Of a DNA stretch of 64,000 nucleotides, positions 3,783-42,400 are shown in pieces. Origin of the DNA: a bacterium (GTDB taxonomy: Bacteria; Patescibacteriota; Patescibacteriia; JACPHY01); the NCBI GenBank assembly GCA_030647005.1, contig JAUSKG010000022.1, positions 18,196-82,195 on the forward strand. The letters are read 5' to 3'. Below the pieces are notes generated by a model. The model had not been told where the DNA came from and ran no database searches. It was given only the letters and a program-made list of their open reading frames with translations. The translations under genes and the position numbers were made by a program. How positions within the stretch are numbered: the first letter of the stretch is position 1; every line of letters begins with the position of its first letter.

Positions 3783-3792
3783 GGACGTCCGC

Positions 3793-6818: not shown

Positions 6819-7594
6819 ACCGTGTACCCCACGCGATTGATGTCCGGCTGCTGTGCCGATGTAAAAATCTCGGGGTGCGCATCCGCGAGCGCAAGGACGT
6901 CATCAATGTCAAAACTCGAATCTGTGGAATGGAACCGTTCGTAGATCGCCCGCATCATGCCGAGATCTGCTGGAGTATCAAGGAGGAGCGTAAGTGCGGG
7001 GCGATGGTATTGCGGCGGTGCAGTGTAGCGATAGATGGAAAACGCGTCCGAGTGATTCCGAATGAAGTAGTTCACGTGCTCGAAGTTATCCAGATTGTTC
7101 CGGTGTGGCTCCTCCTGTGCCATCGCATGCGCGCGTTGGAGCGCAGGGAAGCGCACCACCTGCACATCAATACCCTGTGGGAAGGTATCCTCAAGACAAT
7201 TGGAGAGGAAGTCGCACCTCCGTGCAAAGAATGCTGCAACCCCGCGATCAAGCACCATCGGCGAGATACACGGGCAATCCCCCGTCACGAGGACGAGCAC
7301 ATCCGCGCCCGCCGATGCGCCAGCACCAACGACGCGCCCGAGGACATCGGTCTCGCTCCCGCGGAACGTGCGCGCGCCAAACCGCTCCGCGATAGCGATA
7401 ATGGCATCATCGCGTTGCTCGGTGCTCGTCGCCACCACCACTTCATCAATCCGCTGTGCGCGCTGGACGCGCTCGATCACCGCGCCGAGTGCTGGCAACC
7501 CTGGGAGAAGCTCCAGGGCCATCTTCCCGGGAAGTCGCGTCGCGCCCATCCGCGCTTCGATCGTGGCAACAACCTTCGACATACTCACGCGCAC
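6815..7594 (-). CDS. CMP-sugar cytidylyltransferase (NeuA/SpsF-like) 1
   Basis: VVATIEARMGATRLPGKMA N-terminal cytidylyltransferase motif. Confidence 0.7.
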   Translation of the reverse strand: MRVSMSKVVATIEARMGATRLPGKMALELLPGLPALGAVIERVQRAQRIDEVVVATSTEQRDDAIIAIAERFGARTFRGSETDVLGRVVGAGASAGADVLVLVTGDCPCISPMVLDRGVAAFFARRCDFLSNCLEDTFPQGIDVQVVRFPALQRAHAMAQEEPHRNNLDNFEHVNYFIRNHSDAFSIYRYTAPPQYHRPALTLLLDTPADLGMMRAIYERFHSTDSSFDIDDVLALADAHPEIFTSAQQPDINRVGYTV

Positions 7595-9409: not shown

Positions 9410-10453
9410 CTACACGGGCAACGAACGCTCCGGCATGCACTCTTCTATACACTGTGGATCCAAAACCGTTCCCGCCACTACGGCACGTCGAAGACGCTTC
9501 CCGATAATCCCAAGCTCCTGCCCTGGCGCAAAAGGTCCCGCGGGGCGCACCCACGTCAGGTGTGCGGCTGACAGCACGATTCCTTCCGGGAGATCTTCTG
9601 CAGCGACTACCGCCCGACGGAATGCGCTCCTACCCACTTCCTCACATGGCTGTGGCACCTTCACGCCGCTTCCCATCATCAACTCTACCGCACGGATGCG
9701 TTCGACGAGTACTCGGATCTCATCCGGAGTTGCGGAGAGCTGATGGTCGCGAAAATCTGAGTAGTCGTGCGCAAGCGTGAAATGCTTCTCGACGATCCGC
9801 GCGCCGATCGCGACCGCTGCAACCGCCGCATCATTCCCCATGGTGTGATCCGAGTATCCGATGGTGGAATGTGGAAATTGCTCCCGTAGCGTCGAGATCG
9901 CCCCAAGATTCGCCTGTCCCGGCGGTACCGGATACGATGCGACGCAATGGAGGAGCGCATGATCTCCAGATACGCCACGCGCCGCCCACGCTCCCTGTAC
10001 GTGAGCGACTGCCACACGGATCTCGTCTACCGTCGCAGCACCAGTCGAAAAAATAACTGGCTTTCCCGTATGTGCGATGACCTCGATCATCGGCAGGAAT
10101 GTCAGATCACCCGAGGCGACTTTGTATGCAGGGACGAGCGCATCAAGAAATGCCGCACTCTCACAATCGAATGGGGTTGAAAGAAAGAGCACGCCCGCCC
10201 GTTGCGCAACAGTAGCGAGATGCCGAAAGTCATCATACGAAAGCTGAAAACGGCGTAGCTGCGCAAGACGCCGCTCATCCGTGCGCGCAACAAGTCGCTC
10301 CGGAACAATGGTCTGAAACTTCACCGCGTCCACTCCTGCGAGAGCGGCGCGACCAATGAGGTCTTCTGCAAGCGCACGCGAACCCTCGTGATTATTGCCA
10401 ATCTCTGCAATCACGAATACACGCGATGCAGTATTGTGATGACCAATCATCAT
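9410..10453 (-). CDS. NeuB/PseI/LegI-family nonulosonic acid synthase 1 (with SAF domain)
   Basis: VFVIAEIGNNHEGS...AGVDAVKFQT motifs. The start was trimmed to the MMIGHH methionine, which overlaps the upstream stop by ATGA. Confidence 0.85.
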   Translation of the reverse strand: MMIGHHNTASRVFVIAEIGNNHEGSRALAEDLIGRAALAGVDAVKFQTIVPERLVARTDERRLAQLRRFQLSYDDFRHLATVAQRAGVLFLSTPFDCESAAFLDALVPAYKVASGDLTFLPMIEVIAHTGKPVIFSTGAATVDEIRVAVAHVQGAWAARGVSGDHALLHCVASYPVPPGQANLGAISTLREQFPHSTIGYSDHTMGNDAAVAAVAIGARIVEKHFTLAHDYSDFRDHQLSATPDEIRVLVERIRAVELMMGSGVKVPQPCEEVGRSAFRRAVVAAEDLPEGIVLSAAHLTWVRPAGPFAPGQELGIIGKRLRRAVVAGTVLDPQCIEECMPERSLPV

Positions 10454-10908
10454 ACCGGTAGAGAGACATCTACGTCCTGGAATGCGACCCGTACCATGTG
10501 CATATGCGCCGCGCCCTGCTCCGGTGTCAGCTCGTGCACCGCATCGAGCACCGGCGCGCGCGGCCAGCCCGGATCCGTGAACGTCATCCCACCAAACTCC
10601 CTTGCCTCGCAATACCGTGGAAGAATCGCCGCGTGCGCCTCGGGCGTTGCCATCATGAGGAACAGGAGGTTTATGCGGTCGGGTGCAAACACCCGCGCGA
10701 GCGCATGCTCGACATCGCGCATGACCTGCGCGAATTCCGTCCATGCTTCCGACGTGATTCCACCAAGCGTCGTCGCGTCATCACGATACACCACAAGGAG
10801 CGCGCCGAGGGTGAGCGGCTTCCGTTGCACAAGAACGATCCAATGCATGTACTCGCGGACGAGTGTGTCCGGGTAACCAAATTTTTCCAGAACTGCAGAT
10901 GGGACCAT
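10450..10908 (-). CDS. HIT-like domain protein (degenerate histidine triad)
   Basis: The hydrophobic pattern matches the HIT fold, but the triad position reads EAHAAILPRY in place of HxHxH. Confidence 0.4.
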   Translation of the reverse strand: MVPSAVLEKFGYPDTLVREYMHWIVLVQRKPLTLGALLVVYRDDATTLGGITSEAWTEFAQVMRDVEHALARVFAPDRINLLFLMMATPEAHAAILPRYCEAREFGGMTFTDPGWPRAPVLDAVHELTPEQGAAHMHMVRVAFQDVDVSLPV

Positions 10909-10914
10909 AACGTT

Positions 10915-11898
10915 TTAGGGCGATGTACCGCGCATCAGTGGAGGAGCAGCCACCGTCGCACGCGACTGATACCACGCGTGTACTGCTTCTCGTACGGTCG
11001 CAAGCCGATCATACCGCTGCACCGCATCACGCAACGGCGTGCCGTCGTCCGCGAATGTCGCCTGGACAATCCAAAGCGCGCGATCCGCAGCGCATATGAG
11101 CATGCCGCGCTCGGTGATACGGTAGATGCGGCCTGGCTCGCCGTACATCGGAAGCGTTGCGAGTTCCGATCGGAGCAGTTGCACCTTCCGCCCGTCCGCG
11201 TAGGTAAACGCACATGGGTATGGCGCAGTGAGCGCGCGGATGCGGTTATGCGCCTCCTGTGCGGTGAGCTGATCCCAGAGGATAAGGCCGTCATCGGGAA
11301 ACCGAAGCGGGAGATACGCAGCGCGTGCCACATCCTGTACACGCAATGCAGCAGTCCCGTGTGCGAGCTGCTCCACCGCCGCCATGAGCATGACGGGAAA
11401 CTCACGTTCTGCAATCGTATGCAGGTCCACAATCGTATCATGCGCACCAATAGGAAACGTACGATCGAGAATGACATCGCCAGCATCCACGCCGCTCGCC
11501 ACTTTGATCACCGATAGCGTGAACGATGTTTCGCCGCGAATGAGCGCCCAGTTCATGGGGGAAGAGCCGCGATACTCGGGCAGCTTCCCGCCGTGCAGAT
11601 TGATCGTCATCACGAACGGAATATCAATGATGCGCTGCGCAATAATCTTCCCGTACCCGCCAAGCACGAAGAGATCTGCCCGGTACGCGCGGAGCTGCAA
11701 TGCCACAGCATCCGCGTTCGGATTCTCCGGAGCAATCACGGGAATACCGAATGCTGCTGCGACCGACCGAACGGACGTTGGGGAGTGTCCGGCATCATCC
11801 GGATGCACAACGACGCATGCAATTTCGTCTCCATGCTGTTGGAGCGCCCGCAGACACGCGACCCCGCGCGCGCCCTTCCCCCAAAAAACGATTCGCAT
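10915..11898 (-). CDS. formyltransferase (Fmt/PurN fold) 1, putative sugar N-formyltransferase
   Basis: MRIVFWGKG...; NLHGGKLPEYRGSSPMNWAL = N-x-H-x-x-LP-x-x-RG formyltransferase motif. Confidence 0.75.
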   Translation of the reverse strand: MRIVFWGKGARGVACLRALQQHGDEIACVVVHPDDAGHSPTSVRSVAAAFGIPVIAPENPNADAVALQLRAYRADLFVLGGYGKIIAQRIIDIPFVMTINLHGGKLPEYRGSSPMNWALIRGETSFTLSVIKVASGVDAGDVILDRTFPIGAHDTIVDLHTIAEREFPVMLMAAVEQLAHGTAALRVQDVARAAYLPLRFPDDGLILWDQLTAQEAHNRIRALTAPYPCAFTYADGRKVQLLRSELATLPMYGEPGRIYRITERGMLICAADRALWIVQATFADDGTPLRDAVQRYDRLATVREAVHAWYQSRATVAAPPLMRGTSP

Positions 11899-11911
11899 AC
11901 GCGCGTCCTCG

Positions 11912-12973
11912 TCACGCGGGCACCGCCGTCCTTGTGCGGGGCATCGCCACCGCCGCTGGCACGGCGAACGCAGGATGAAATCCCTTGTACCAACCAATGT
12001 ACCGCTCGTATCCACGCTCAAGCGGATGCTGCGGTGTGTACCCAATCATGCGACGCGCCTTCGCGACATCGAGCGTTCCGCGGTCTGGCATCAATGCGTC
12101 TTTCGGCTCGTAACGGACGGTAATACCGGGGAATTCCTTACGCACGACATCCGCAAGCTCTGCGATGGAACGGCCGGTGCCGTAGGTGAGATTGAACGTC
12201 TCGTTCTTTGCCTCTGGACGCGCAAGGACACACATGATGCCGTGCACGAGATCGTGTACACAGGTGAAATCGAGCCGATCCGTCCCGTCCCCTTGCACCA
12301 CAATGTCCTGCCCTGCGATCGCATTCTCGATGAAAATCTGCCCCACGCGGCGCGAGACGCACCGCTCGCCGTAGAGCGCAGACGGACGGACGATCGTATA
12401 CGGCAATCCAAACACCTGATGATAGGACTTCACGATAAGCTCTCCGGCGAGCTTCAGCGCGCCGTAAATACCCATGGGATGACACGGCGTATCTTCGGAC
12501 GCAAATCCATCCGGGAAATTTCCGTACACCATGGACGACGAGAAGTACACGAAGTGCTGCACATTCCCACGCGAGTAGTCGAGCGCATTCTCGAGCGTGC
12601 GGAGCGAGTGGTCAAACGTGCTATGCGGGTCCTTGTTCGAACGATTCGCGTGCGCGACCGCCGCGAGCTGGACAATGGCATCCGGTTGGATGCGCTTGAG
12701 CACTGCGGTGAGCGGATGATAATCGCGCGCATCCTGCACATAGAGCGGCACACCCGCGGCCTCGAGCAGCGCAAGTCGCTCGTGCAGGATACGCGTGTAC
12801 AACGCGCGGTGCTGCGTCACGCCTTCGCCGACAAATGCGAGGAGATTGTTGATTTGCAAACTATCCACGATCGCAACTTCCGCCCCCTCCGCGCGCAATC
12901 CGAGCGCGAGGTTATGGCCGATGAACCCTGCGCCGCCAATCAACGCAATGCGCCGTCCGCTCAAGAGTGCCAT
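11912..12973 (-). CDS. NAD-dependent sugar epimerase/dehydratase (extended SDR)
   Basis: IALIGGAGFIGHNL Rossmann; YGALK catalytic YxxxK. Confidence 0.8.
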   Translation of the reverse strand: MALLSGRRIALIGGAGFIGHNLALGLRAEGAEVAIVDSLQINNLLAFVGEGVTQHRALYTRILHERLALLEAAGVPLYVQDARDYHPLTAVLKRIQPDAIVQLAAVAHANRSNKDPHSTFDHSLRTLENALDYSRGNVQHFVYFSSSMVYGNFPDGFASEDTPCHPMGIYGALKLAGELIVKSYHQVFGLPYTIVRPSALYGERCVSRRVGQIFIENAIAGQDIVVQGDGTDRLDFTCVHDLVHGIMCVLARPEAKNETFNLTYGTGRSIAELADVVRKEFPGITVRYEPKDALMPDRGTLDVAKARRMIGYTPQHPLERGYERYIGWYKGFHPAFAVPAAVAMPRTRTAVPA

Positions 12974-12986
12974 ACGAACACAAGGT

Positions 12987-14177
12987 TTATGAAACAGCTA
13001 CCCGAAGAGGTTGCTGCACGACAACCGCCGCAATTGCTTCTGTCACCATCGCCGCAATGTACGCCATGTCATCTGTCGTGAGGTGCGGACCGACGGGGAG
13101 TGCGATGCCGTGATTGCTGATGCGCGCCGCGTGCGGGAATGTGTCGAGACCGTACCCGTACTTCGTGCGGAAGTAGGTGAGGTGCGGAACCGGGTGTGGA
13201 TAGTAGATGCTCGTGCCGACGCCGCGCGCCTTGAGCGCTGCCACAATCTCAAAGCGCCTCGGCGCGAGTGCATCCGAGAGCATCACGAGGCCGCAGTAGC
13301 GACTACTGACACCGTCGCCGTCACTCGTTGCGAGGAGCGCGATGCCGGGAATACGCGCGAGCGCGACGCGGAGCGCGTCGTCATTGCGCACACGCGCAGC
13401 AAGGAATCCGGGGACGCGCGTGAGCTGCACGGTGCCGATTGCCGCCTCGATCTCGTTCATCCGGTAATTGTACCCGAGCATCGTCACATCATAGATGCCG
13501 GGGATTGCCCGCTCGGTGACGGTCTTGTCCAGACCAAACGCACGCTGGCGACGCATATGCGCCGCGAGCGCGTCGTCGTTTGTCGTCACCATGCCGCCCT
13601 CGGCGGTCGTCATGTGCTTCACGGGATAGAACGAAAAGCAGCCAACGTCCCCAAACGTCCCCGCGTGCGCACCGCGGAACCACGTGCCGATCGCGAGCGC
13701 GCAATCCTCCACGACGAAAAGGCGGTGCCGATCCGCGATGGCGCGGACGCGATCCATGTCCACCGGCATGCCGAGGTAGTGGACGAGCGAGAGCGCGCGC
13801 GTTCGGGACGTAATCGCCACCTCCACCGCATCGAGATCTATGTTCCCCGTGCGCGGCTCTGCATCCACAAACACTGGTGTCGCGCCGACGTACTCCACGG
13901 CGAACGCGGTTGCCACATGCGTCTGTGCCGGCACGATCACCTCGTCGCCACGACCGATTCCAGCCGCAAGATACGCGAGGTGCAGACCTGTGGTGCAAGA
14001 GCTCACGGCGATCGCGTGCTTCACGCCGACAAATTCTGCAAAGCGATGCTCGAACTCCTCCACGCGCGGACCATGGACGAACGTCGAACCTGCGAGGACG
14101 TCCGCAACCGCCGCACGCTCTTCCGCACCGAGCAACGGTTTCCCAAAGGGAATAATCCGCGGAGCAGTGATTTGCAT
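12987..14177 (-). CDS. DegT/DnrJ/EryC1/StrS-family sugar aminotransferase
   Basis: HAIAVSSCTTGLHLA...GDEVIVPAQTHVATA...FSFYPVKHM. Start at MQITAPR. Confidence 0.8.
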   Translation of the reverse strand: MQITAPRIIPFGKPLLGAEERAAVADVLAGSTFVHGPRVEEFEHRFAEFVGVKHAIAVSSCTTGLHLAYLAAGIGRGDEVIVPAQTHVATAFAVEYVGATPVFVDAEPRTGNIDLDAVEVAITSRTRALSLVHYLGMPVDMDRVRAIADRHRLFVVEDCALAIGTWFRGAHAGTFGDVGCFSFYPVKHMTTAEGGMVTTNDDALAAHMRRQRAFGLDKTVTERAIPGIYDVTMLGYNYRMNEIEAAIGTVQLTRVPGFLAARVRNDDALRVALARIPGIALLATSDGDGVSSRYCGLVMLSDALAPRRFEIVAALKARGVGTSIYYPHPVPHLTYFRTKYGYGLDTFPHAARISNHGIALPVGPHLTTDDMAYIAAMVTEAIAAVVVQQPLRVAVS

Positions 14178-14263
14178 AGTGGCGTAGGTACTTGTCCGCA
14201 CCTGGCGCGGGAGCACCAGAGGATCAAAAGAGTGCGCATCATGCGCACTCTCATACAACGCAT

Positions 14264-15328
14264 CTATCGTACCGTAGTTGTGTGCGCGCGGGAAACGATC
14301 CCCATCTCCCGCTCTATCTCCACAACATCCACAGGTTCTCCACAGTCGGCGGACCGTTCGATTGCGAAGCAGGCCGCCATGGTCAGAAACGCATCATCTC
14401 CCGTAATGAGCGGATCACGTCCGTCGAGCACGGCGGTGATGAAGTCCGTCAAAAGATCGTACTTCGCGCACCCGGGATACGGCTGCTCCACCGCTGTCGG
14501 CGGCACCACGGGATCGCGGGAAGTGTAGTACCGCCCGTGCGGGAGATCGTTCACGAATGTCGCCCGTGTTCCATAGAGCGCAACCGGGTGGAAATGTGGC
14601 GCGACGCACCCAAAGTGCACGCCGACGGTCCCGATGATACCACTCGCAAACGTGAGTGTCGCGGTGATGGAGTCGCGGAAATGATACGGTGTGCCACGCG
14701 AGGCGATCTGGTTCCCGACCGCGAACACGCGCGTGATGTCATCACCCGTGAACCACCGCAAGAGATCAACCACATGGATCCCGCCACCATACACGACGGA
14801 GTAGAACGGGAGCCGCCCACGCCACCCATCGGTGATCTTCTGCAAGCGTCCGTACTGATAGCTCGCTTCCACCGCGAAAAGCTGACCGAACGCGCCCGCA
14901 TCGCACTGCTCCTTCACCCACCGGAACCGCTGCGAGGTGCGCAGGATGGTATTCGTGGAGAGCCGAAGGCCGGGATGTGCCGCGAGTGCGGCGCGAATAC
15001 GACATGCTTCCTCCACCGAATAGCACAGCGGCTTCTCCGCGAACACGTGCTTCCCGTGCGCAAGCGCAGTCAGGATCTGCGCCCCGTGCGCATCGTCGTA
15101 CGTTGCGATGACCACGCAGTCCACGTCTGGATCTGTGAGTACCGCATCGGCATCGCCGATGCGGCGTACGCCCGGAAATCGCGCGCCCACCTCCGCGAGC
15201 TTCGCTGGATCCCGATCGCAGAGCACCGCGAGTGTCGCACGCGGGTGCTGCAGGACGCCGATCGCGTGCTGCTCCCCGACGCCGAGTCCAATAACACCAA
15301 CACGAAACGATTCCATACACTCCTCCAT
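14264..15328 (-). CDS. Gfo/Idh/MocA-family oxidoreductase 2
   Basis: FRVGVIGLGVGEQH Rossmann; FAEKPL motif. Start at MEEC/MESF, preceded by GGAGGAG. Confidence 0.75.
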   Translation of the reverse strand: MEECMESFRVGVIGLGVGEQHAIGVLQHPRATLAVLCDRDPAKLAEVGARFPGVRRIGDADAVLTDPDVDCVVIATYDDAHGAQILTALAHGKHVFAEKPLCYSVEEACRIRAALAAHPGLRLSTNTILRTSQRFRWVKEQCDAGAFGQLFAVEASYQYGRLQKITDGWRGRLPFYSVVYGGGIHVVDLLRWFTGDDITRVFAVGNQIASRGTPYHFRDSITATLTFASGIIGTVGVHFGCVAPHFHPVALYGTRATFVNDLPHGRYYTSRDPVVPPTAVEQPYPGCAKYDLLTDFITAVLDGRDPLITGDDAFLTMAACFAIERSADCGEPVDVVEIEREMGIVSRAHTTTVR

Positions 15329-15330
15329 GT

Positions 15331-16038
15331 TCAATGAACGCTGTGGGTGCCCCCACGCTCGCCTTCGGGCACCATCGCAAGGATTTCCTCGTAATGGTAT
15401 GCGGTGTGCGAACGCTCCATCTGCTGCACGATCCGCACGAAGCGCTCCCAATCCTCCACCGTATCCACCGCGAGCTGCGCAGTACTGTTATCGTGCGACG
15501 CGCTGAAGTTCTTGATGCGGAACTCCTCTGGGTGCTGATAATAGTACCGCGTAACATGCTCGCGATCCAACGGATCCGTCATGCGCACATGCGCGCGTCG
15601 GAATGGCTCCGTGCGCACAACCTCCACGGAAACGCCCACGGGAAAACTCCGCGGAAACGTGTTCGTGACAAGATCATACTCGCTACCGCGAAACAATGCC
15701 ACCGCAGTCGAAATGACCGCAGGATCAGTGAGCGGGCTATCCCCGCACACGCGCACGAATGCGTCGAATTCGTGCGCGTCCGCAGCGGCAAAAAATCGCC
15801 CAGCGACGTCCACAAGTGAACCACGGAAGCACGGAATGCTCTTGTCCGCACAGAACGCAGCGATGGGATCATCGCTCGTTTCGTCCGACGTTGCCACGAT
15901 CACACCATCCACGCCGTGCGCAAGTGCAACACGCTCAAGTGTGTACAGAAGCATGGGCTTCCCCCCAAGGTCACGGAGCACCTTCCCCGGCAACCGTTGC
16001 GAGCTCATCCGTGCTTGAACGATGATGCCGATCGTCAT
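15331..16038 (-). CDS. CMP-sugar cytidylyltransferase (NeuA/PseF-like) 2
   Basis: MTIGIIVQARMSSQRLPGKVL motif. ATGA overlap with the upstream methyltransferase. Confidence 0.7.
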   Translation of the reverse strand: MTIGIIVQARMSSQRLPGKVLRDLGGKPMLLYTLERVALAHGVDGVIVATSDETSDDPIAAFCADKSIPCFRGSLVDVAGRFFAAADAHEFDAFVRVCGDSPLTDPAVISTAVALFRGSEYDLVTNTFPRSFPVGVSVEVVRTEPFRRAHVRMTDPLDREHVTRYYYQHPEEFRIKNFSASHDNSTAQLAVDTVEDWERFVRIVQQMERSHTAYHYEEILAMVPEGERGGTHSVH

Positions 16039-16943
16039 ACGTATGTTTGTGGTGCGGCTGGTACCGCAACCCCTTCGGGATAATATGCAACCGTTTCTGC
16101 ATGCCACCGCTCGAAAAAATTCTGCACCGCACGGTAATCGTCGCCAGTCCAAGGGATGGTTTCGTCGACATCGCGCCGCTCCGCGATCATACACAGAACG
16201 TCATGATCAATGTAGCGATTCGTCTGTCGCACCGCGAAGTGCGCAGTAGCGAGCTGTGCCGTGAGCGTCTGGGCGCTCCACCGGAACGCGTGACTATCCG
16301 CAGCACGACCCCCGAGGTAGTAGTGGAGCGGCTTCTTGAATGGGACGAAAATGCGACTGCCCGTTGCCACCACCACCTGCCCACCGGGCCGCAACATCCG
16401 GTGTGCTGCCGCGAGCATCGCGCGCGGCGACTGACAATTCTCCATGGTCCACGCGATGACCGCGATATCATACTGCCCTGCGGATGTTCCGCTTGCCGCA
16501 TACTCCTCAATGGTGCCACGGAAATTGGGAATACCAAGGGCTGTCATGCGCGCACAGTTCGCGCGCGACGGCTCAATACCAAACACGGCGGCTCCGTACT
16601 CCGACTGCCGGAGCATCTCGAGGAATACCCCCTCCCCTGCACCGATGTCGCACACACGCTTCCCCTGCAGCCCCCCGAGCTGCTCCGCCATGAACGCCGC
16701 GACGAACGTGAGCCGCGCCCGCACTGCCGGTAGGAGCGCGGTGTACCCGTTCCCATAAATCTGCTCTGACCACTCATCCGCAATCGCGCCCGCGGAGCGG
16801 CGTTGCTTCACATACACAAACCCGCACTGTATGCAGATATGAATCGGCTGCCCGCCCGTGTATTCGCGCGCATGCGGAACCTCCACGGCATCCGTGGTAC
16901 CACAAATGTCACAGGGAAAATCCATTGGGTCAGATTGGGACAT
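16035..16943 (-). CDS. class I SAM-dependent methyltransferase with N-terminal Zn-ribbon
   Basis: CDICG...CIQCG Cys pairs; VCDIGAGEG SAM motif I. Confidence 0.7.
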   Translation of the reverse strand: MSQSDPMDFPCDICGTTDAVEVPHAREYTGGQPIHICIQCGFVYVKQRRSAGAIADEWSEQIYGNGYTALLPAVRARLTFVAAFMAEQLGGLQGKRVCDIGAGEGVFLEMLRQSEYGAAVFGIEPSRANCARMTALGIPNFRGTIEEYAASGTSAGQYDIAVIAWTMENCQSPRAMLAAAHRMLRPGGQVVVATGSRIFVPFKKPLHYYLGGRAADSHAFRWSAQTLTAQLATAHFAVRQTNRYIDHDVLCMIAERRDVDETIPWTGDDYRAVQNFFERWHAETVAYYPEGVAVPAAPQTYV

Positions 16944-16951
16944 ACATTTGT

Positions 16952-16990
16952 GTCATTGCGAGGGAGTCCGCGACCAAAGCAATCCCGACC
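16952..16990. repeat. half-copy of GTCATTGCGAGG…GCAATCCCG palindromic repeat family (intergenic)
   Basis: gtcattgcgagggagtccgcgaccaaagcaatcccgacc. It shares about 30 of 35 nt with the copies inside leuS. Confidence 0.6.
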
Positions 16991-17082
16991 ACGACCAGAT
17001 GCAGGAGCTACGGCCGTTCCCCACCAATGATATCCAGCATTGCTTCGACGCGCGCAGCCGTGCTCCTCGCAATGACATCGAA

Positions 17083-18252
17083 TTACACTGGCGGAAACCG
17101 CAGCTGCCATTCCCCTCCCTCCTGCTTCCAAATCTCGGCATTTCGGTGCCGGTCAATGAGCGCGGTGAACTCCTGATCCGTGAGGTGGAGGTACGCGAGC
17201 ATGTCCTGGTAGTACCGCGCAGGAAACTCATGATCGTATGCGCGTGCGTGCGCGAGTCCCCGCTCCCGCGTGAGTTGCTTGTTCTGGATCATGCGACTCG
17301 CATCGCGTATCGCGCGGCCAAAACCAAACTTCACGTACTGCAGGTAGTAGTAGAGGTTGTCCGATTTGTCATCCAACGAATCAAAGTCCGTGAATGTTCC
17401 CTCCGTGCGCCCCTCGGCACACGTCTGAAAATCAATCTTATCCTTGATGTATTCGTAATTCTCAAAGCTGCTCCACTTGAAGAAATACGCGAAGTAGTAT
17501 GCGCGCACGCCGACGCGCTGGATGTCCTGGATGGCAGGATACCGATACGGGTTGAGGTCACGCTCCGTCACCACGTCATCCACCCAGTTGCGCGGATCGT
17601 CACCAATTTGATGCTCGATAACCTCGGTAAAATCCCGCACTTTCGCAGAATCCTCACGAAGCACCTTGCCGCCGTACTCGCTCTCGCCGTGCTCGGCGTA
17701 CAAAACGAGCGGGATGCCGTACCGCACCGCGGCCTGTACTGGCGTTGCGTTGATACCCGCATCCCACGCAATCTTATGATTGCCGCGCTCCAGAAAGAAT
17801 CGCCGCGCGAGATGCCGGTGGATACGCTGATCTGGACGAAGGAGATGATGATCAAACCCCGCCTGAATCATCGCCTCGTAGTTGTGCAGACCGACAGCCG
17901 TCGGAAGTTGTGGCGAGAACGTGACGAGGAGCGGATTCATCCCAAACTCATGCTTGAGCTTGTACGCGATGGCACTGCTGTCCTTCCCACCGCTCCACGG
18001 CACGATGCAATCCCACGATCCATCGTCCGCACGGTACTGATCGAGCAACGCGAGAAACTCCGCACGCCGCGCCGCCCAATCAATGCCATCCCACTTCCGC
18101 TCCGCATACCGACATGCATTGCACACGCCCTCTGCATCAAAAACGATGCGCGGACGCGAGTTGGGCATGACGCAACGCGTACAGTACTGAATCGTGCGGC
18201 CCCCATGTGCTGCGATGTCTTGCCGCGTGTGCGATGTGATCGTCATGTCCAT
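17083..18252 (-). CDS. N-acetyl sugar amidotransferase (WbuX/PseA-like PP-loop ATPase)
   Basis: YCTRCVMPNSRP...CNAC Zn-ribbon followed by SGGKDS PP-loop. Start trimmed to MDMTITSH. Confidence 0.8.
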   Translation of the reverse strand: MDMTITSHTRQDIAAHGGRTIQYCTRCVMPNSRPRIVFDAEGVCNACRYAERKWDGIDWAARRAEFLALLDQYRADDGSWDCIVPWSGGKDSSAIAYKLKHEFGMNPLLVTFSPQLPTAVGLHNYEAMIQAGFDHHLLRPDQRIHRHLARRFFLERGNHKIAWDAGINATPVQAAVRYGIPLVLYAEHGESEYGGKVLREDSAKVRDFTEVIEHQIGDDPRNWVDDVVTERDLNPYRYPAIQDIQRVGVRAYYFAYFFKWSSFENYEYIKDKIDFQTCAEGRTEGTFTDFDSLDDKSDNLYYYLQYVKFGFGRAIRDASRMIQNKQLTRERGLAHARAYDHEFPARYYQDMLAYLHLTDQEFTALIDRHRNAEIWKQEGGEWQLRFPPV

Positions 18253-18256
18253 ACAG

Positions 18257-19003
18257 TTACACGCGCACCGAAATCCCCGCCTTCGCAAGGTACGCCTTCG
18301 CGCTATGGATACTCGGCTCCGTGAAGTGATAAATATTCGCAGTGCACACCGCGGACGCATGGCCGTCGCGAAATCCGTCCACAAAATCCTGCCACTTGCC
18401 CGCGCCACCGCACACGAGTACCGGAACGTCCACGGCATCGGCGACGAGCTGGTTCAACGTATTGTCGTAGCCCTCCAATGACCCGTCCTTCTCCATGGAG
18501 GTGATCATGACCTCCCCCGCTCCGCGCGCTTGCGCTTCTCGCGCCCACGCCGCTGGATTGAGCCCTGTCGGTTGCGTCCCACACTCGGTATACACCTCGT
18601 AGGTCCCCTGCGCATTCCGCCTCGCATCCAAAGAAACAACGACGCACTGCGCTCCGTATGCCTGTGCGATCTCCGTGATAAACCCAGGCCGTTGCACTGC
18701 CACCGAATTCACCACCACCTTGTCGGCACCGCTCCGCAGGAGCTGCTGCACATCCTCCATCGTACGCACTCCGCCGCCCGCTGCCAATGGCACGAAACAG
18801 CGCTCCGAGAATTGCTCCACCACTGCAAGAAAATGCTCACGCACACCCAACCCGGGACGGGTGATATCGAGGAGCACCACTTCATCTACAGACCATGCGT
18901 CCACAAAACTCGCCGTGTAGCGGTAGTCCGGTTGAAACTCCTTCGTCCGAAACAGCACGCCGTCATTGAACGTAAGGACGGTGACAACACGATTACGCAA
19001 CAT
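18257..19003 (-). CDS. imidazole glycerol phosphate synthase cyclase-subunit homolog (HisF/WbuZ-like)
   Basis: Full-length HisF-like (beta/alpha)8 signature (…VPLAAGGGVRT…VVNS…). Confidence 0.85.
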   Translation of the reverse strand: MLRNRVVTVLTFNDGVLFRTKEFQPDYRYTASFVDAWSVDEVVLLDITRPGLGVREHFLAVVEQFSERCFVPLAAGGGVRTMEDVQQLLRSGADKVVVNSVAVQRPGFITEIAQAYGAQCVVVSLDARRNAQGTYEVYTECGTQPTGLNPAAWAREAQARGAGEVMITSMEKDGSLEGYDNTLNQLVADAVDVPVLVCGGAGKWQDFVDGFRDGHASAVCTANIYHFTEPSIHSAKAYLAKAGISVRV

Positions 19004-19625
19004 ACGAGCGCGCAGGCATTTGCAACAAAAAATTCTTCAGGAACTGCAATCCATGCTGCTGACTCTTCTCCGGATGAAACTGTGTTGCGACAATGTTTTT
19101 TTGCTGGAACGCGGCCGTGAAACGCGACCCGTACTCGCATTCCCCCACAACGATTGTGGAATCATCGCATCGAATGTGAAAACTATGGACATAATAAAAC
19201 AGCGCGTCGGTAGGAATGCCATCAAACAGCGGGGACTGTTGCGTGCGGATGCAATCGTTCCATCCGACATGCGGCACGCGCAGCCCATCCGGCGGCGCAA
19301 GGCGTACTACATCCGCAGCGATCCATCCCAGTCCTTCATGGTGACCAAATTCCTCACTCGATCGCGCGAAAAGCTGCGCGCCGAGGCAGACGCCAAGGAT
19401 GGGTTTCTGCTGGTGCAAGATGAGATCGGTGAGCGGCTCCACGAGATTACGCGTGCGGAGATTCGCCATGCCATCGCCAAACGCGCCCACGCCCGGCAGG
19501 ATGAGCGCCTCGGCGCGCTGCAGCTCTGCGGGGTCCGCCGTAACGATTGGCACGAACCCTACCCGCGCAACCGCCGCCGCGACCGAACGGATATTCCCGA
19601 GACCGTAGTCAATGATGGCAACCAT
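18993..19625 (-). CDS. glutamine amidotransferase HisH/WbuY-like
   Basis: MVAIIDYGLGNIRSV...GVCLGAQL (catalytic Cys)...FHPEKS. Confidence 0.85.
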   Translation of the reverse strand: MVAIIDYGLGNIRSVAAAVARVGFVPIVTADPAELQRAEALILPGVGAFGDGMANLRTRNLVEPLTDLILHQQKPILGVCLGAQLFARSSEEFGHHEGLGWIAADVVRLAPPDGLRVPHVGWNDCIRTQQSPLFDGIPTDALFYYVHSFHIRCDDSTIVVGECEYGSRFTAAFQQKNIVATQFHPEKSQQHGLQFLKNFLLQMPARSYVA

Positions 19626-19728
19626 ACGCGCACGACGGACGACACCGTATCTTGGACCAGCGTACCGCACGAGCGCGCGCCCGCAAGAGAAACGGACGGC
19701 CCATGAGGAGCCGTCCGTTCAGACACCG

Positions 19729-20637
19729 TCAGAACACAATGAAGATAATTGCGCAGCCCGCGATGCCGATGGCGAACCGTGCGTACACCCCGCGCCCGAG
19801 GCCCTGCGCCTCCTTGAACACGATGAGGCCGACCATGGTCGGAATCACCATTTCCGCGACCTGCTTGATCGGCTGGACGACGGTGATTGGTGCCAGCGAT
19901 TGCGACCACGTCCACATGAATAGTGCAATGGCAATCGTGGAAGCGAGGAGCAGCATACCGCGGATACCGCGCGCATCGAGCGGCGCTCCTGCTTCCGCAC
20001 GTCCGAGGAGGAACCGAATGCTCAACGCGCCGACGTATGACCCAAGGTACCACGCGGCGACGAAGCTCGGCACGGACACTCCCTCGAGCGCAAACACGCG
20101 CATGGCGAAGTGCCCGAATCCCCAGATGACGCTGTACCCCGCGATCCACAGCGCGAGCTGCTTCCATGGGAATGTCGCTGCAGGTACCGCTACACCATCT
20201 GCACCGCGATACCGCGCCACGGAGATTGCCGTGCCGCCAGCGATGGCAACCGCGACGCCGGTCGCAAGCAGTGCAGAGTCGGCGAGGTGCGCATACTCGT
20301 GGAGCACGAAGTACCCGAGTGCCATCGCGATGAAGTCGTCCGCCTGCGTGAAGAGGTATGTCCGACTCACGCTGATGTCCACGGCACGCCATTGACAGTA
20401 CGCGCCCAAGCTGTTCACGAATCCGATGGCACCGATTGCAAGGGTCCATGTCCCGACGATCGGCGCACCCACGATCCACGCGAACAGCACGGCGTAGCAC
20501 GCCGCAAACCCGAACATCCACACCATGCGCCGCGTCCGCGATGGAAGCCCTGTCGCACGCTTGATGAGGATTGGATTCACGACCATCGTGAAGAGTCCCA
20601 ACGATATCGGCAATTGCCAAGGAACCACTTCCATCAC
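19729..20637 (-). CDS. EamA/DMT-family 10-TM membrane transporter
   Basis: About ten hydrophobic helices across two halves. The overlapping 436-aa Arg-rich ORF on the same strand is spurious. Confidence 0.6.
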   Translation of the reverse strand: MMEVVPWQLPISLGLFTMVVNPILIKRATGLPSRTRRMVWMFGFAACYAVLFAWIVGAPIVGTWTLAIGAIGFVNSLGAYCQWRAVDISVSRTYLFTQADDFIAMALGYFVLHEYAHLADSALLATGVAVAIAGGTAISVARYRGADGVAVPAATFPWKQLALWIAGYSVIWGFGHFAMRVFALEGVSVPSFVAAWYLGSYVGALSIRFLLGRAEAGAPLDARGIRGMLLLASTIAIALFMWTWSQSLAPITVVQPIKQVAEMVIPTMVGLIVFKEAQGLGRGVYARFAIGIAGCAIIFIVF

Positions 20638-20702
20638 GCTTCCTCCTTTTCATGCGTTGCACCGCAACACACCAACCAACTATGATACTGCTGGATGCGC
20701 TG

Positions 20703-22295
20703 TCAATCGGACGACGGGAGGAGGTACCGATCGAGAAATGCCGTGTCGGTGGGATCGGCGGGCTGTGCGACCGCATCGCACAGCGCACGCGCATCGAATA
20801 CCACTCGCGCACGATCGTCGCAGGCCGCACGGACGATACGCACGCGCCGCGCAAGGAGCGCGAGCGCATCGGGGAATGGTGGTGCGGGGTCGCCGTCCAC
20901 CAACAGTGCCACTATCGGTTTGGTCGTGCAGAGTGCGATGGGAAACGCGGTGGTGCGCATGCTCCCGAATACGAACGCATCCGCGTGGGTATGCGCGGTG
21001 TGAAAGTCCTCCGCGAGCACCTCGGCGCGCCCATCAAACATCCCTCGCACTTCCGCGAGACGATCTGGGTGCGCCTTGTAGACAACACCGTACCCGGCAT
21101 CGCGGAGTGCTTCGATGATGCGGAGTTCGAGGTCCAACTGCTGGAGCCCAAGCGACGCGGCGGCAGTGTACTTACGTTGTGCGTTCTGCGGAAATCCGAT
21201 GACCATGACGCGACGGATGCGCGCCGCTGCAGGGACCGGGCGCATGCGCTGCCGGATTGCGCGATAGATACCGCTCACGCCCGATACAATTGTGAGCGGG
21301 TTTGGCACGATGGGAAGCCGCGCGCGATGGATGCGACGGCAGAGATCGGCACTCCCATCGGTGTAGGTGACGTAGGTATCCGAGAGCGCGAACTCGGACC
21401 ATGTTGGCATCGCGGTGTTGAAGAGCCCTACGAATCCCCCGTGCGCAGCCGTCATCACGCGCCCGCCACGCTCCCGCACGGCGAGCGCGAGTGCGCGTTG
21501 GCGATGCTGCGTCGCCGATCCAAGCGCAACGTGCGCGACGGCATGGGCTGCAACGAATGCGCGCATCTGCAGCAGCATGCGGACTGCATCCACGAGCATT
21601 GCGTCCGTCCGCGTACGGAGTACATCACGGAACGCATCATCGGTAGGAATCGCGTACTGCTGAGCGATACCGGTACACGCATCCACCAACGACGCGGCAG
21701 CGATGCGCAGGGCCGCGCGTACACCAACAGGACAATCGGGCATCGGGGGAAGCGCGTCGTTGTACAGCGTCCGAACCCACTCCGGGGTGTGCGCGAGGTA
21801 CTCCGCGAGAAGCGCATGCGGTGCTCCTGCAACCCATATCCGACGTTCGGAGCGGACGCGCGCCGCCATCTTCACCGCAGTTGCATTCGCGGCAATTCCG
21901 CGCCCCCATCGCACCAGCCGAACCGCAGGCACCATCCACACGGCGCGCGCGGCACCGACGGATGCCGTAAATGATGCGGCGTGCCCGAGTGCCTCCGCAA
22001 ACCACGCGGCGGCTGGCTGGCACACGGGCTCATGCCCCGCCGCACGCACGCGCACCACCACCGCGCGCGCGTGGAGCATGTGCACGAGCGTGACCGGAAG
22101 CTCGCGCGCGATGAGCAGCGCGGCACCGACATCCCCCGGCGTGGCGGCAATGGCGGATCGCACGGATCCTTCCACTGCATCGGCTAACGCAATAAATTCG
22201 TGGTCCGGGACGGGCCACGAGCATGTCTCGCGCCAGCGATCAACGCCGAATGCTTTCACGGAGCCGATGTCGAGGGGGAACTCGCGGGTTGCCAT
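20703..22295 (-). CDS. KpsC/KpsS-like (Capsule_synth-like) putative glycosyltransferase 2
   Basis: C-terminal VVYKAHPDRLAEV...ADAFVFGSMRTTAFPIALCTTKPIVAL resembles the K-x-HP retaining keto-sugar-acid transferase core. Assignment is weak. Confidence 0.4.
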   Translation of the reverse strand: MATREFPLDIGSVKAFGVDRWRETCSWPVPDHEFIALADAVEGSVRSAIAATPGDVGAALLIARELPVTLVHMLHARAVVVRVRAAGHEPVCQPAAAWFAEALGHAASFTASVGAARAVWMVPAVRLVRWGRGIAANATAVKMAARVRSERRIWVAGAPHALLAEYLAHTPEWVRTLYNDALPPMPDCPVGVRAALRIAAASLVDACTGIAQQYAIPTDDAFRDVLRTRTDAMLVDAVRMLLQMRAFVAAHAVAHVALGSATQHRQRALALAVRERGGRVMTAAHGGFVGLFNTAMPTWSEFALSDTYVTYTDGSADLCRRIHRARLPIVPNPLTIVSGVSGIYRAIRQRMRPVPAAARIRRVMVIGFPQNAQRKYTAAASLGLQQLDLELRIIEALRDAGYGVVYKAHPDRLAEVRGMFDGRAEVLAEDFHTAHTHADAFVFGSMRTTAFPIALCTTKPIVALLVDGDPAPPFPDALALLARRVRIVRAACDDRARVVFDARALCDAVAQPADPTDTAFLDRYLLPSSD

Positions 22296-23329
22296 ACCGA
22301 TGGAGCTACTGACGATATGCGCGACGCATCCGTGCGAAGCCCGTGCGCGTCATACACCGCCTCAAATGCACGGGCGGCATCGAGCACCGATTGCGGGGTT
22401 GCGCAACGAACACCAGGACGCATGACCGGCGGCTTCTCGCCAACGATCGGACGGACGGCGCGGACGACCAGCGTACGGTCGTGCGCCGCAATCGCGATAC
22501 CGTCATCATGCACACGAATAATCAGCCCACTCATGAACGGATGGAATGCCCCATCACGATCATGCGTGGTTGCCCCATGCAACGTCACACGCGCACCACG
22601 GAGGAACGTCATCGCACCGGAGTACGGATCGTCAAACGCCGCGATGAACTGCGCAATCTCCTCGCCACTCCACCGCCAATCAACGAAACCGTGCTCTGCG
22701 GTCGCGAGCCGCGGGAAGTACGTTGCACGTGCCTCGTCTTGCGAGATGTGCGGAAAATCATCGTCCACACGAAGCCGGTCGAGAAATCGCGCAAAAAAAT
22801 CCGGCTCGTGTGCAACGTGATATGCCCGATACTCCGCAGGGGTCCGACAGGTCTCTGGGAACATGTACGACTCCATGGCGATGATGGGACCGCTATCGAC
22901 ACCTGCATCCACCTCGTGGAAGAGGAACGCGCCACGGCGATCGTCGCGCATCACCTGCCACGAAAACGTCGCCGCGCCACGATTCTCCGGCAAGCACGTC
23001 CCGTGCGCGTTGAGGAGCCGACCCGCAAACAACACGAGGTGCTCATTGCGGAAAATCCACGGCGCACCAAACGATATACCAATCGTGCGCTCGTCGACGA
23101 GCGTCTCGAGGGGGAAGGCGCGGAGATCGGTAATGGAATGGAATGGGATGCCCATATCCCGCAGGTGCTGCTCGACCGTCACCGTCGTGCCGTCGAGTAC
23201 CGCCGTGAGGAGTCGCGGCGCGGAACACACGATCACGCCGTACCCGCGCGCGATCGCGTGCTGCGCGAATGCGGCGAGACGCGTCCCACCGCCGAAGAGC
23301 ACAAATCGGTTGATGGGGCCAAATCGCAT
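22256..23329 (-). CDS. formyltransferase 2 (Fmt-like, with C-terminal domain)
   Basis: LLNAHGTCLPENRGAA = N-x-H-x-x-LP-x-x-RG motif. The real start is MRFGPINRFVLFGGG. The 220-aa Arg-rich N-terminal part of ORF 22256..23995 is spurious and overlaps the PIG-L gene in another frame. Confidence 0.7.
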   Translation of the reverse strand: MRFGPINRFVLFGGGTRLAAFAQHAIARGYGVIVCSAPRLLTAVLDGTTVTVEQHLRDMGIPFHSITDLRAFPLETLVDERTIGISFGAPWIFRNEHLVLFAGRLLNAHGTCLPENRGAATFSWQVMRDDRRGAFLFHEVDAGVDSGPIIAMESYMFPETCRTPAEYRAYHVAHEPDFFARFLDRLRVDDDFPHISQDEARATYFPRLATAEHGFVDWRWSGEEIAQFIAAFDDPYSGAMTFLRGARVTLHGATTHDRDGAFHPFMSGLIIRVHDDGIAIAAHDRTLVVRAVRPIVGEKPPVMRPGVRCATPQSVLDAARAFEAVYDAHGLRTDASRISSVAPSVWQPASSPSTSAP

Positions 23330-23330
23330 A

Positions 23331-24029
23331 CTATGACGCAATGATGCGCACCACCTCAAACGCCTCGGCCGCACGCAAGCCAGCCGTCGCGCCGCGCCAG
23401 CATGCGAGCGCATCAATCGCCTCATGCGACCGCGGATGCGGAAAGGGGCGCATCTCCCGCTCGTAGTGCCGGAGCGCTTCATGTTTCGTTGCGAGTGTGT
23501 CGGTGATGTCCACAAAGAGCGTCGGCGCAAAGGCAGCGGGGCTGTTCCACTCGGTTGCGGACGGCGTCTCAAATGAGAGAATCGTCCGCACGCACATGCC
23601 AGGGAGCGGCCGACACGCGGTGAGCACTGCTGCGAACGTTGCGCGATGGTCCACATTGAGGTCGCCGCGGTGATGCGTGAGAATCGTGTCGGGACGATGC
23701 TCCGCAACCGCCGCCTCCACGGCCTTCGCAATGTCGAGGAGCGGAACGGTATCAAAACGGTTATCCGGAAAATCGAGGACACGTACGGAAGCAACCGCCA
23801 ATGCTGCTGCCGCACCCTGTGCCGCCGCTTGAAGCCCATCAACCACTGCGTGTTGCGCAAGCCCCACAGCGCGCGTCGCATGCCGCGCGGTCTCACCTTC
23901 TCCGAGAACGAGCACATGCGCGGTCGCGCCCGCACGCACCCACTTTGCAACCGTCCCCGCACAACCGAGTACTTCGTCATCGGGATGCGCGGCAACGATG
24001 AGTACGCTCCGCGGTATTGAAAATGCCAT
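23331..24029 (-). CDS. PIG-L/LmbE-family N-deacetylase
   Basis: LIVAAHPDDEVLGCAG motif. Confidence 0.7.
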   Translation of the reverse strand: MAFSIPRSVLIVAAHPDDEVLGCAGTVAKWVRAGATAHVLVLGEGETARHATRAVGLAQHAVVDGLQAAAQGAAAALAVASVRVLDFPDNRFDTVPLLDIAKAVEAAVAEHRPDTILTHHRGDLNVDHRATFAAVLTACRPLPGMCVRTILSFETPSATEWNSPAAFAPTLFVDITDTLATKHEALRHYEREMRPFPHPRSHEAIDALACWRGATAGLRAAEAFEVVRIIAS

Positions 24030-29184: not shown

Positions 29185-29963
29185 ACAATACCCGTTGCTC
29201 CGGGAGCAGTAGTATTCATATACCACGCCCTGCCGACGCCAGCATCAATCCAATTATTCACCCGATTGATCTCCGGATGCGCGTCAAGGAAGGATATGAT
29301 GCGCGGGAAGTCCAGCGGTACCGCTGGCGACAACCCAATCCCCGCATAGATGGCCCGCATCACCACCAAATCCTCCGGCCAATCCACGGTGAGCCGATAC
29401 CGCTGCGGATCAATGGACAGCGGTGCGGGATGGTTCATGACGTGAAATTCCTCCGGATGTTCACGGATGTAAAGCCCGCAGAGCTCGCTCCGATGCCGCT
29501 CGTCCCCCTTTTCCCACGATGCGCGCAGGGCATCGGTACGAATAATCTGAAATGATGCCCCATCCGGCAACCCGAACACCCCAGAATAATCCAAGGCGTG
29601 CTCCTGATGGTACTGCCACACGCTCGGTAAACACCCGAGATATGGAAATGGACTCTCCGTCGTCACACGGAACACATGATCCGCACCCACGCGCTCGGCC
29701 CCCAGGATGAGCCGACGCAATACATCACGCTCATCGCCAACCACAAATGGGATCCCATACGCTGCGCTCTTCTGCCGATACACCGCGTTCTCTTCGCGCT
29801 CGGAAATACAGAGCACGATGTCGTCAATCTCGAGCCGCTGCTGCAGCTGCGCAACGAGATAATCGAGAATCGAAACGCCGCGCTCCACGTCGAGGTTCTG
29901 GAGTGGCTTCGCATACAATCGCGACGACTGGTTGCGACACGCGAGGATGGCGGCAAGTTTCAT
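29181..29963 (-). CDS. cytidylyltransferase-like (SpsF/NeuA family) 3
   Basis: MKLAAILACRNQSSRLYAKPL cytidylyltransferase N-terminal motif. Confidence 0.65.
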   Translation of the reverse strand: MKLAAILACRNQSSRLYAKPLQNLDVERGVSILDYLVAQLQQRLEIDDIVLCISEREENAVYRQKSAAYGIPFVVGDERDVLRRLILGAERVGADHVFRVTTESPFPYLGCLPSVWQYHQEHALDYSGVFGLPDGASFQIIRTDALRASWEKGDERHRSELCGLYIREHPEEFHVMNHPAPLSIDPQRYRLTVDWPEDLVVMRAIYAGIGLSPAVPLDFPRIISFLDAHPEINRVNNWIDAGVGRAWYMNTTAPGATGIV

Positions 29964-32869: not shown

Positions 32870-32944
32870 ACATAGCCATTGCAGTCCGTATCCCCTGCGC
32901 TGTCAAACGAAACGCCGCCCGGGATATCGGGCGGCGCACTGGTA

Positions 32945-38425: not shown

Positions 38426-42400
<3,975 letters not shown>

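Follow-up and report, generated by a model that had tools for sequence, protein, structure and literature searches.

The 64,000-nucleotide stretch of contig JAUSKG010000022.1 analyzed here (the window) contains a biosynthetic island for nonulosonic acids (NulOs) that encodes two formyltransferase-fold proteins, designated FT1 and FT2. The window has a G+C content of ~60-65% and carries almost all of its genes on the minus strand, including the NulO island, which spans ~1.4-37.6 kb. An earlier note on this DNA had singled out two open reading frames (ORFs) for proteins with the fold of methionyl-tRNA formyltransferase (Fmt). Both are present where it placed them, each with an ATG start and a stop codon. 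We propose that the two proteins are probably N-formyltransferases of NulO biosynthesis that depend on 10-formyl-tetrahydrofolate (10-formyl-THF) and that neither is Fmt.

10915-11898, minus strand: FT1, formyltransferase with the two-domain ArnA/Fmt fold (327 residues)
22256-23329, minus strand: FT2, divergent two-domain formyltransferase-family protein (357 residues)

Two Formyltransferase-Fold Proteins

FT1 (MDO8463200.1) is labeled methionyl-tRNA formyltransferase by NCBI, and Pfam recognizes both PF00551 Formyl_trans_N (5.9e-23) and PF02911 Formyl_trans_C (1e-14) in its sequence. The active-site motif reads N100-L-H102-GGK-LP-EY-RG and the catalytic Asp is D138. This triad of N100, H102, and D138 is invariant in 82 FT1 homologues (50-74% identity). 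An AlphaFold2 (AF2) model of FT1 has a predicted local distance difference test (pLDDT) score of 94.8, and Foldseek matches it to the formyltransferase domain of ArnA (ArnA-FT) with E of 1e-27 to 3e-29 and template modeling (TM) scores of 0.8-0.9 (0.83/0.91 for 2bln, with a root-mean-square deviation of 2.3 Å). FT1 relatives are encoded on 343 metagenome stretches, and FT1 is 50-60% identical to proteins of Planctomycetes, Acidobacteriota, and one archaeon.

FT2 (Q7S96_02985, MDO8463211.1) is labeled a hypothetical protein. Formyl_trans_C is recognized at 1.6e-12 and Formyl_trans_N just clears its cut-off (6.7e-6, 26.4 bits versus 26.1) over residues 97-154 only. The motif is N107-A-H109-GTC-LP-EN-RG and the catalytic Asp, D145, is invariant across the FT2 family. 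The AF2 model (pLDDT 93.4) matches both ArnA-FT and Fmt with E of ~1e-20 to 1e-21, with TM scores of 0.70-0.85 for ArnA-FT. FT2 belongs to a discrete family of ~100 proteins, after which there is a gap before true Fmt proteins appear at E 1e-8. Its closest named relative is a Ca. Uhrbacteria protein (60% identity). Both FT1 and FT2 therefore carry the hallmarks of sugar formyltransferases, namely the Formyl_trans_N core, the Asn-His-Asp triad, and the LPxxRG folate-site motif. The intact triads bear out the check proposed in the earlier note, and the motif described there is present as well, with the spacing N-x-H-x-x-x-L-P-x-x-R-G, one residue longer than had been claimed.

Fmt or Sugar Formyltransferase?

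Fmt (TIGR00460; 1fmt, 2fmt) has the same fold, triad, and C-terminal beta-barrel domain as FT1 and FT2. The earlier note had suggested a structural comparison with sugar N-formyltransferases, and this did return ArnA-FT along with QdtF, FdtF, WlaRD, and WbkC (the last four at E 1e-14 to 1e-19), but Fmt matched equally. Structure was dropped as a discriminator because of the equal significance of the Fmt and ArnA-FT matches, and loop and motif anatomy together with synteny were therefore used. The family models speak to the same question. The NCBIfam equivalog model for fmt (TIGR00460) has a cut-off of 201.5 bits, and FT1 and FT2 fall below it with 136.8 and 62.5 bits. FT1 scores higher against the generic formyltransferase model PRK06988 (167.5 bits) and against ArnA (156.3 bits) than against fmt.

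In Fmt, an insertion in loop 1 that carries the basic patch PAGRGKK (E. coli residues ~34-49) touches the acceptor stem of the initiator tRNA. FT1 and FT2 were aligned with the Fmt proteins of P. aeruginosa and E. coli and with the formyltransferase domain of ArnA. Loop 1 of FT1 (HPDDA---GHS--PTS) is 5 residues shorter than that of Fmt and contains neither the RGKK patch nor any Arg or Lys, and the segment at this position in FT2 is unrelated. Past the RG of the active-site motif, FT1 has the P-x-N-W signature of ArnA (PMNWALIRGET in FT1 and PLNWVLVNGET in ArnA versus PIQRSLWAGDA in Fmt). The linker of FT1 likewise has the R-x-P-D-D of ArnA (LRFPDDGLILW and RRTPDDSFLEW, respectively, versus KLSKEEARIDW in Fmt). 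The N-terminal subdomain of FT2 is unrelated to Fmt and ArnA in this alignment and contains a 15-residue insertion.

Fmt is a housekeeping enzyme of bacteria and organelles, and its gene is often a neighbor of def. Archaea are not known to formylate their initiator tRNA. Members of the FT1 and FT2 families are nevertheless found in archaea, including P0208, Halobellus ordinarius, Halovenus rubra, Natronomonas, and Micrarchaeota. The window was also searched by tblastn with E. coli Fmt and Def sequences that served as probes only. FT1 and FT2 were the only Fmt-like genes and no def was detected in the 64-kb window, which agrees with the earlier observation that the two genes sit in sugar operons among NulO genes and not beside def. 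FT1 and FT2 thus differ from Fmt in family score, loop 1, operon setting, archaeal homologues, and distance from def. The family cut-offs, the loop anatomy, the archaeal homologues, and the conserved NulO synteny described below argue that neither protein is a genuine Fmt. FT1 and most of its homologues are probably systematically misannotated as methionyl-tRNA formyltransferase.

The FT1 Cassette

FT1 is part of a run of minus-strand genes, listed here from the head of the cassette:

15331-16194, minus strand: CTP_transf_3 cytidylyltransferase (PF02348, 1.9e-29)
14264-15451, minus strand: GFO/IDH/MocA sugar oxidoreductase (Pfam; coordinates of the longest ORF, true start probably later)
12987-14258, minus strand: DegT-family sugar aminotransferase (PF01041, 6.4e-114)
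11912-12973, minus strand: epimerase-like extended short-chain dehydrogenase/reductase (SDR; PF01370), directly upstream of FT1 with a 13-nt gap
10450-10908, minus strand: histidine triad (HIT)-domain ORF between FT1 and NeuB (152 residues; PF01230, 9.7e-5, 23.4 bits versus a cut-off of 21.5)
9410-10453, minus strand: NeuB-type nonulosonic acid synthase (PF03102, 3e-68; start revised to ATG 10453)
7585-9405, minus strand: AsnB-like glutamine amidotransferase after NeuB (Pfam; TIGR01536, 373 bits)

This arrangement recurs widely. Three homologue loci from unrelated sources (L005-L007) have the cytidylyltransferase, GFO, DegT, SDR, FT1, and NeuB genes in the order seen in the window, often with the AsnB-like gene. 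In a sample of 80 metagenome loci, an SDR is the upstream neighbor of the FT1 homologue in 41 of 48 and NeuB is the downstream neighbor in 39 of 50. Among these, the 26 loci that measure 9 kb or more were tallied by family, with SDR in 25, DegT in 24, NeuB in 22, cytidylyltransferase in 19, GFO in 19, and AsnB in 18. A GNAT or PglD-type acetyltransferase was detected in none of the 26. Because no acetyltransferase was detected in the cassette, FT1 appears to occupy the slot of the absent N-acetyltransferase, where it would probably take the place of PseH or LegH and formylate the amine just installed by DegT. The product would be a formamido nonulosonic acid, with the formyl group on N7 if the chemistry parallels that of pseudaminic acid (Pse) and of legionaminic acid (Leg). 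The DegT protein comes nearest to the models for PseC, with 299 bits, and ArnB, with 254 bits, without reaching either cut-off.

Some details of the cassette required revision. The SDR was considered as a LegB-type 4,6-dehydratase and rejected on its score (76 bits for TIGR04180 versus a cut-off of 475) and its motif, which is SSS...YGALK and not the TDE of a dehydratase. A 108-residue N-terminal "extension" of NeuB (to position 10744) was also rejected as Arg/Gly/Ala-rich read-through, the space being occupied by the HIT-like ORF. This ORF has a degenerate histidine triad, and ORFs 68-74% identical to it occur in the closest relatives L007 and L090 only. A possible role for it is that of the missing nucleotide-sugar hydrolase in the FT1 cassette.

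A second formyltransferase appears in many related cassettes. In ~40% of the long FT1 cassettes, NeuB is followed directly by a short WbkC-like formyltransferase and then a CE4 polysaccharide deacetylase (L005 at 9930-11551; also L093, L099, L111, L116, L117, and L122). The pair is not orthologous to FT2 and the deacetylase gene next to it, and its frequency makes two formyltransferases per island a recurring design.

FT2 and Its Neighborhood

FT2 lies next to a predicted sugar deacetylase and downstream of genes for Pse-type biosynthesis:

23331-24029, minus strand: PIG-L/LmbE-type N-acetyl-sugar deacetylase (PF02585, 2.1e-25), 1 nt upstream of FT2
28156-37565, minus strand: Pse-type sub-cluster upstream of FT2 (Pfam and NCBIfam)
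33988-36513, minus strand: PseC fused to a GSA-aminomutase-like class-III aminotransferase (841 residues; PseC 450 bits versus a cut-off of 423.5, PRK06209 550 versus 486)
36510-37565, minus strand: PseB (equivalog, 486 bits versus a cut-off of 407.75)

The sub-cluster reads PseB, the PseC fusion, a 348-residue protein of unknown function, an aldo-keto reductase (AKR), a DUF218+GNAT protein, NeuB, CTP_transf_3, and a further NeuB, and the PseB and PseC equivalogs belong to the operon run of FT2. The neighbors of the sugar N-formyltransferase class, a keto-forming oxidoreductase and a DegT aminotransferase, are thus found in the settings of both FT1 and FT2. The PIG-L protein has the AHPDDE metal-binding motif, and its relatives in the Protein Data Bank (PDB) are diacetylchitobiose deacetylase and BshB. 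PIG-L and FT2 are translationally coupled, and the order PIG-L then FT2 is common to the window and the two closest relatives (L088 and L089, 60% identity). The position of PIG-L directly before FT2 and beside PseB and PseC suggests an acetyl-to-formyl swap. Most likely, PIG-L would remove an N-acetyl group to expose the amine and FT2 would add a formyl group, acting on a Pse-type sugar or a nucleotide-linked precursor.

The wider context of the family was sampled in 80 genome loci from many bacterial phyla, groups of the candidate phyla radiation (CPR), and archaea. NeuB is present in 52 of these loci, cytidylyltransferase in 50, and WbuX in 42, and the FT2 homologues of L001-L003 sit in NulO clusters. 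A Halobellus locus (L039) contains an FT2-family gene along with a PIG-L gene whose product is 44% identical to that of the window. The family divides into a canonical "NH" subtype (34 loci), to which the window FT2 belongs, and a "DM" subtype. The NH relatives are usually found beside CTP_transf_3 and a class-III aminotransferase, the latter being their commonest neighbor. In L001 and L002, an aminotransferase of the type fused to PseC in the window is instead fused to a cytidylyltransferase.

In the DM subtype, the catalytic Asn is replaced by Asp, the His by Met, and His138 by Gln, and these proteins are probably not formyltransferases. A DUF4910/DUF2172 (Cj1295 / CA_C2195-like) gene is found within 3 kb of the DM gene in 47 of 47 loci (L001 at 10001-11041, L002 at 10001-11080, L065, L066, L076, and 42 further loci), usually with a 185-residue GNAT. 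The DM genes resemble a module of pseudo-formyltransferases within Pse clusters, one that goes unmentioned in the main text of the paper on the DUF4910 structure (PMC4000134). DUF4910, which is M28-like, was considered as a general deacetylase partner of FT2 and rejected, since it accompanies only 5 of 34 NH genes in contrast to all 47 DM genes. Its structure does not have the peptidase catalytic residues (PMC4000134), and no DUF4910 gene is present in the window.

FolD Is a Backbone Gene

FolD makes 10-formyl-THF, and the earlier note had taken its nearness to the two formyltransferase genes as support for their function:

43546-44376, minus strand: FolD (both THF_DHG_CYH domains, 5.2e-50 and 8.6e-27)

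The gene does share the strand of FT2, from which it is 20.2 kb away, with its start at ATG 44376 and not at 44373, and it is 32 kb from FT1. Between FolD and the island lie a gene for a 1439-residue MopE-repeat protein and a citrate-synthase-like gene. The nearness does not serve as support. A relative (L170) keeps a backbone block of LeuRS, MopE-repeat proteins, GtrA, and FolD, in which MopE-type proteins flank FolD. Elsewhere, only one of the 80 genome loci has FolD near its FT2-family gene (within 10 kb on either side), and this is a partial 38% match, while the tally by family of the 26 long FT1 loci contains no FolD. Since the backbone block is kept in L170 and FolD is nearly absent from formyltransferase loci elsewhere, its proximity is uninformative. 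FolD is a backbone housekeeping gene outside the island and its position is coincidental. It would feed the donor pool as in any cell. The protein itself is an unremarkable FolD of a ubiquitous kind (7774 homologues at E <= 1e-10), for which reason the homologue search was also uninformative as a taxonomic guide.

Comparison with Known Systems

N-Formylated NulOs are established in the form of Pse5Ac7Fo and Pse7Fo5(3RHb) (PMC11040635). The only NulO-pathway formyltransferase with a biochemically established function is PseJ, from the Pse5Ac7Fo pathway of Anoxybacillus kamchatkensis (PMC11040635). PseJ (6ci2, 6ci4) has the same catalytic core as FT1 and FT2 but consists of one domain (chains of 192-217 residues), whereas FT1 and FT2 have a C-terminal domain in addition and are members of other families. 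Their matches to the PseJ structures (E 4.4e-4 for FT1 and 3.2e-7 for FT2, over ~85 residues) do not place them in the PseJ family.

Two other organisms offer parallels in gene context. Halorubrum PV6 is a proven maker of Leg5Fo and has a predicted formyltransferase cotranscribed with legB/C/F/G (PMC6137143); the likeness to FT2 is one of context, and genes of the FT2 family are present in other haloarchaea (Halobellus, Halovenus). In Ca. Kuenenia stuttgartiensis, cytidine monophosphate (CMP)-linked NulOs with a formylated amine have been detected, and a Leg-like cluster contains a deacetylase and a formyltransferase (SugarBase preprint 10.64898/2026.04.20.719630). This gene logic resembles that of PIG-L and FT2, a comparison made by description alone. 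The Kuenenia assignment likewise comes from gene context, and its gene order is unlike that of the window.

Another close known system is the N-terminal domain of E. coli ArnA, the UDP-4-amino-4-deoxy-L-arabinose N-formyltransferase (2bln, 1yrw, 5j63), which has the same two domains and Asn-His-Asp triad as FT1 and FT2 and for which, as for them, an SDR and a DegT aminotransferase work upstream. FT1 also shares its short loop 1 and the P-x-N-W and R-x-P-D-D motifs. In contrast to ArnA, with which they are ~28% (FT1) and ~19% (FT2) identical, FT1 and FT2 are not fused to a decarboxylase and have NeuB and cytidylyltransferase genes as neighbors instead of arnBCDT. As stand-alone proteins with 156.3 (FT1) and 57.6 bits (FT2), both fall far below the 777-bit cut-off of the ArnA model PRK08125. 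Judged by sequence, FT1 may work like the formyltransferase domain of ArnA, yet it is no ArnA orthologue.

Proposed Functions and Alternatives

The precedents above make N-formyl NulOs a reasonable product class, and to this extent the N-formylated amino sugars predicted in the earlier note stand, although its argument from FolD does not. From fold, active-site residues, and gene neighborhood we infer the formyl donor, the acceptor sugars, the nitrogen modified, and the pathway stage for both enzymes. A number of observations weigh against the assignment. Both proteins score under every curated NCBIfam cut-off, including those of ArnA and PRK06988, and the fold search matches ArnA-FT and Fmt equally well to both models. 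The N-terminal subdomain of FT2 is very divergent, with Pfam coverage confined to residues 97-154. The survey for fmt covered the 64-kb window, which is part of a 98,333-bp contig of a metagenome-assembled genome (locus tags Q7S96_). Functions in both families are read from sequence, models, and gene context. In the FT1 cassette, the SDR is epimerase-like and not a 4,6-dehydratase, and a nucleoside diphosphate (NDP)-sugar hydrolase is rarely seen in the long loci (PseG-like in 0 of 26, Epimerase_2 in 1 of 26). Formation of the NeuB substrate thus departs from textbook Pse or Leg biosynthesis, and the acceptor amine of FT1 is uncertain. For FT2, PIG-L adjoins the NH-type gene in only 5 of 27 long loci outside the CPR-like clade, and the class-III aminotransferase and CTP_transf_3 are commoner beside it, so that the acceptor amine could come from the aminotransferase.

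These points bear on three alternatives. It is highly improbable that FT1 is the genuine Fmt of the organism and merely sits in a sugar island. Its NCBI name and its pair of N- and C-terminal Fmt domains would fit such an enzyme, its top sequence match in the PDB is P. aeruginosa Fmt (2.6e-32, level with ArnA at 7e-32), and no further fmt is visible in the 64-kb window. Against this stand an fmt score of 136.8 bits where 201.5 are needed, which is also below its PRK06988 and ArnA scores, the missing basic insertion in loop 1, and the ArnA-like linker and NW motifs. In addition, the FT1 homologues of Planctomycetes, Acidobacteriota, and the archaeon always lie between SDR and NeuB, no def is nearby, and archaea are not known to formylate initiator tRNA. 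Very unlikely, too, is a role for FT1 and FT2 in modifying 6-deoxy-amino-hexoses of a glycan chain (Qui4NFo or Fuc3NFo type, as for VioF, WlaRD, and FdtF) rather than NulOs. This idea is consistent with remote similarity to WbkC, QdtF, FdtF, and WlaRD in both sequence and fold, and with an FT1 cassette that has no recognized hydrolase to free the sugar for NeuB. However, NeuB directly follows FT1 in 39 of 50 loci, a CMP-type cytidylyltransferase is present in 19 of 26, FT2 relatives are in NeuB-containing clusters in 52 of 80, and none of the island genes was identified as part of a dTDP- or GDP-sugar pathway (RmlA/RmlB, GMD).

An alternative with a better claim, if still an unlikely one, is that the substrate of FT2 is not a deacetylated ring amine. 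The acceptor might be the amine made by the class-III aminotransferase or an aminoacyl or other side chain added by an ATP-grasp ligase, or FT2 might be a 10-formyl-THF hydrolase or binding subunit. As neighbors of NH relatives, CTP_transf_3 and a class-III aminotransferase (alone or with an AKR) are much commoner than PIG-L, and the gene run of the window contains the aminotransferase fused to PseC, an AKR, and an ATP-grasp gene. FDH hydrolase domains have the same triad and fold, and a large sister subfamily has lost the Asn and His. The window copy, however, retains the full triad, PIG-L and FT2 lie side by side and are coupled in each of the three members of the closest clade, and the deacetylase and formyltransferase of Kuenenia correlate with formylated CMP-NulO. 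Formylation of a deacetylated amine by FT2, and of a DegT-installed amine by FT1, remains the preferred account. We raise tentatively, and with more doubt than belief, the idea that the FT1 cassette is a widespread and undescribed route to formamido nonulosonic acids that are neither Pse nor Leg. Such a route would do without the 4,6-dehydratase, N-acetyltransferase, and NDP-sugar hydrolase that are canonical in Pse and Leg biosynthesis, and the sugar could, for example, be oxidized, aminated, and formylated at a different stage, possibly while CMP-linked.

Other Features of the Window

Three NeuB genes (9410-10453, 28156-29226, and 29960-31114) and four CTP_transf_3 genes in the one island imply two or three different nonulosonic acids in a genome whose nearest named relative is a CPR lineage. 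An amidotransferase set lies between FT1 and FT2, and further genes of note lie elsewhere in the window:

17083-19670, minus strand: WbuX, HisF, and HisH amidotransferase set (WbuX TIGR03573, 330 bits versus a cut-off of 203; Pfam His_biosynth and GATase)
1378-4440, minus strand: acyl carrier protein (ACP)-like ORF, FkbH-domain protein (TIGR01686, 239 bits versus a cut-off of 146.65), phosphopantetheinyl transferase, and GNAT
37575-38423, minus strand: stand-alone citrate-synthase-like C-terminal domain at the island edge
38426-42745, minus strand: 1439-residue protein with at least 8 MopE-type putative metal-binding repeats (PF11617, 3.5e-73)
45252-47282, minus strand: ATP-grasp/citrate-binding and CoA-ligase subunits of an ATP-citrate-lyase-like system

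The WbuX, HisF, and HisH proteins are expected to form a PseA-like set that turns N-acetyl into acetamidino groups. The genes at 1378-4440 are expected to load a glyceryl group on a carrier protein and to N-acylate a sugar with it, by analogy with Pse5Am7Gra and the di-O-methylglyceroyl Pse of Campylobacter. An ORF at 19559-20869 was replaced by one at 19729-20637 after gene calling on an 8.4-kb Logan contig. The ATP-citrate-lyase-like parts are split, with the citrate-synthase-like domain 7 kb from the others.

Significance

N-Acyl groups on sialic-acid-like sugars set surface charge, recognition by phage and antibodies, and glycosyltransferase specificity, and the enzymes that add N-acyl groups other than acetyl are mostly uncharacterized. 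FT1 and FT2 stand for two uncharacterized families of formyltransferases, both of them common among bacteria and archaea of the environment, FT2 being a separate family with no characterized member. Because formylated NulOs and one dedicated enzyme, PseJ, are already known, current understanding is not overturned. Correct assignment would bring better annotation and candidates for the enzymatic synthesis of formylated Pse and Leg derivatives, and it would enlarge the sparse picture of cell-surface chemistry in a lineage that has Ca. Uhrbacteria as its nearest named relative.

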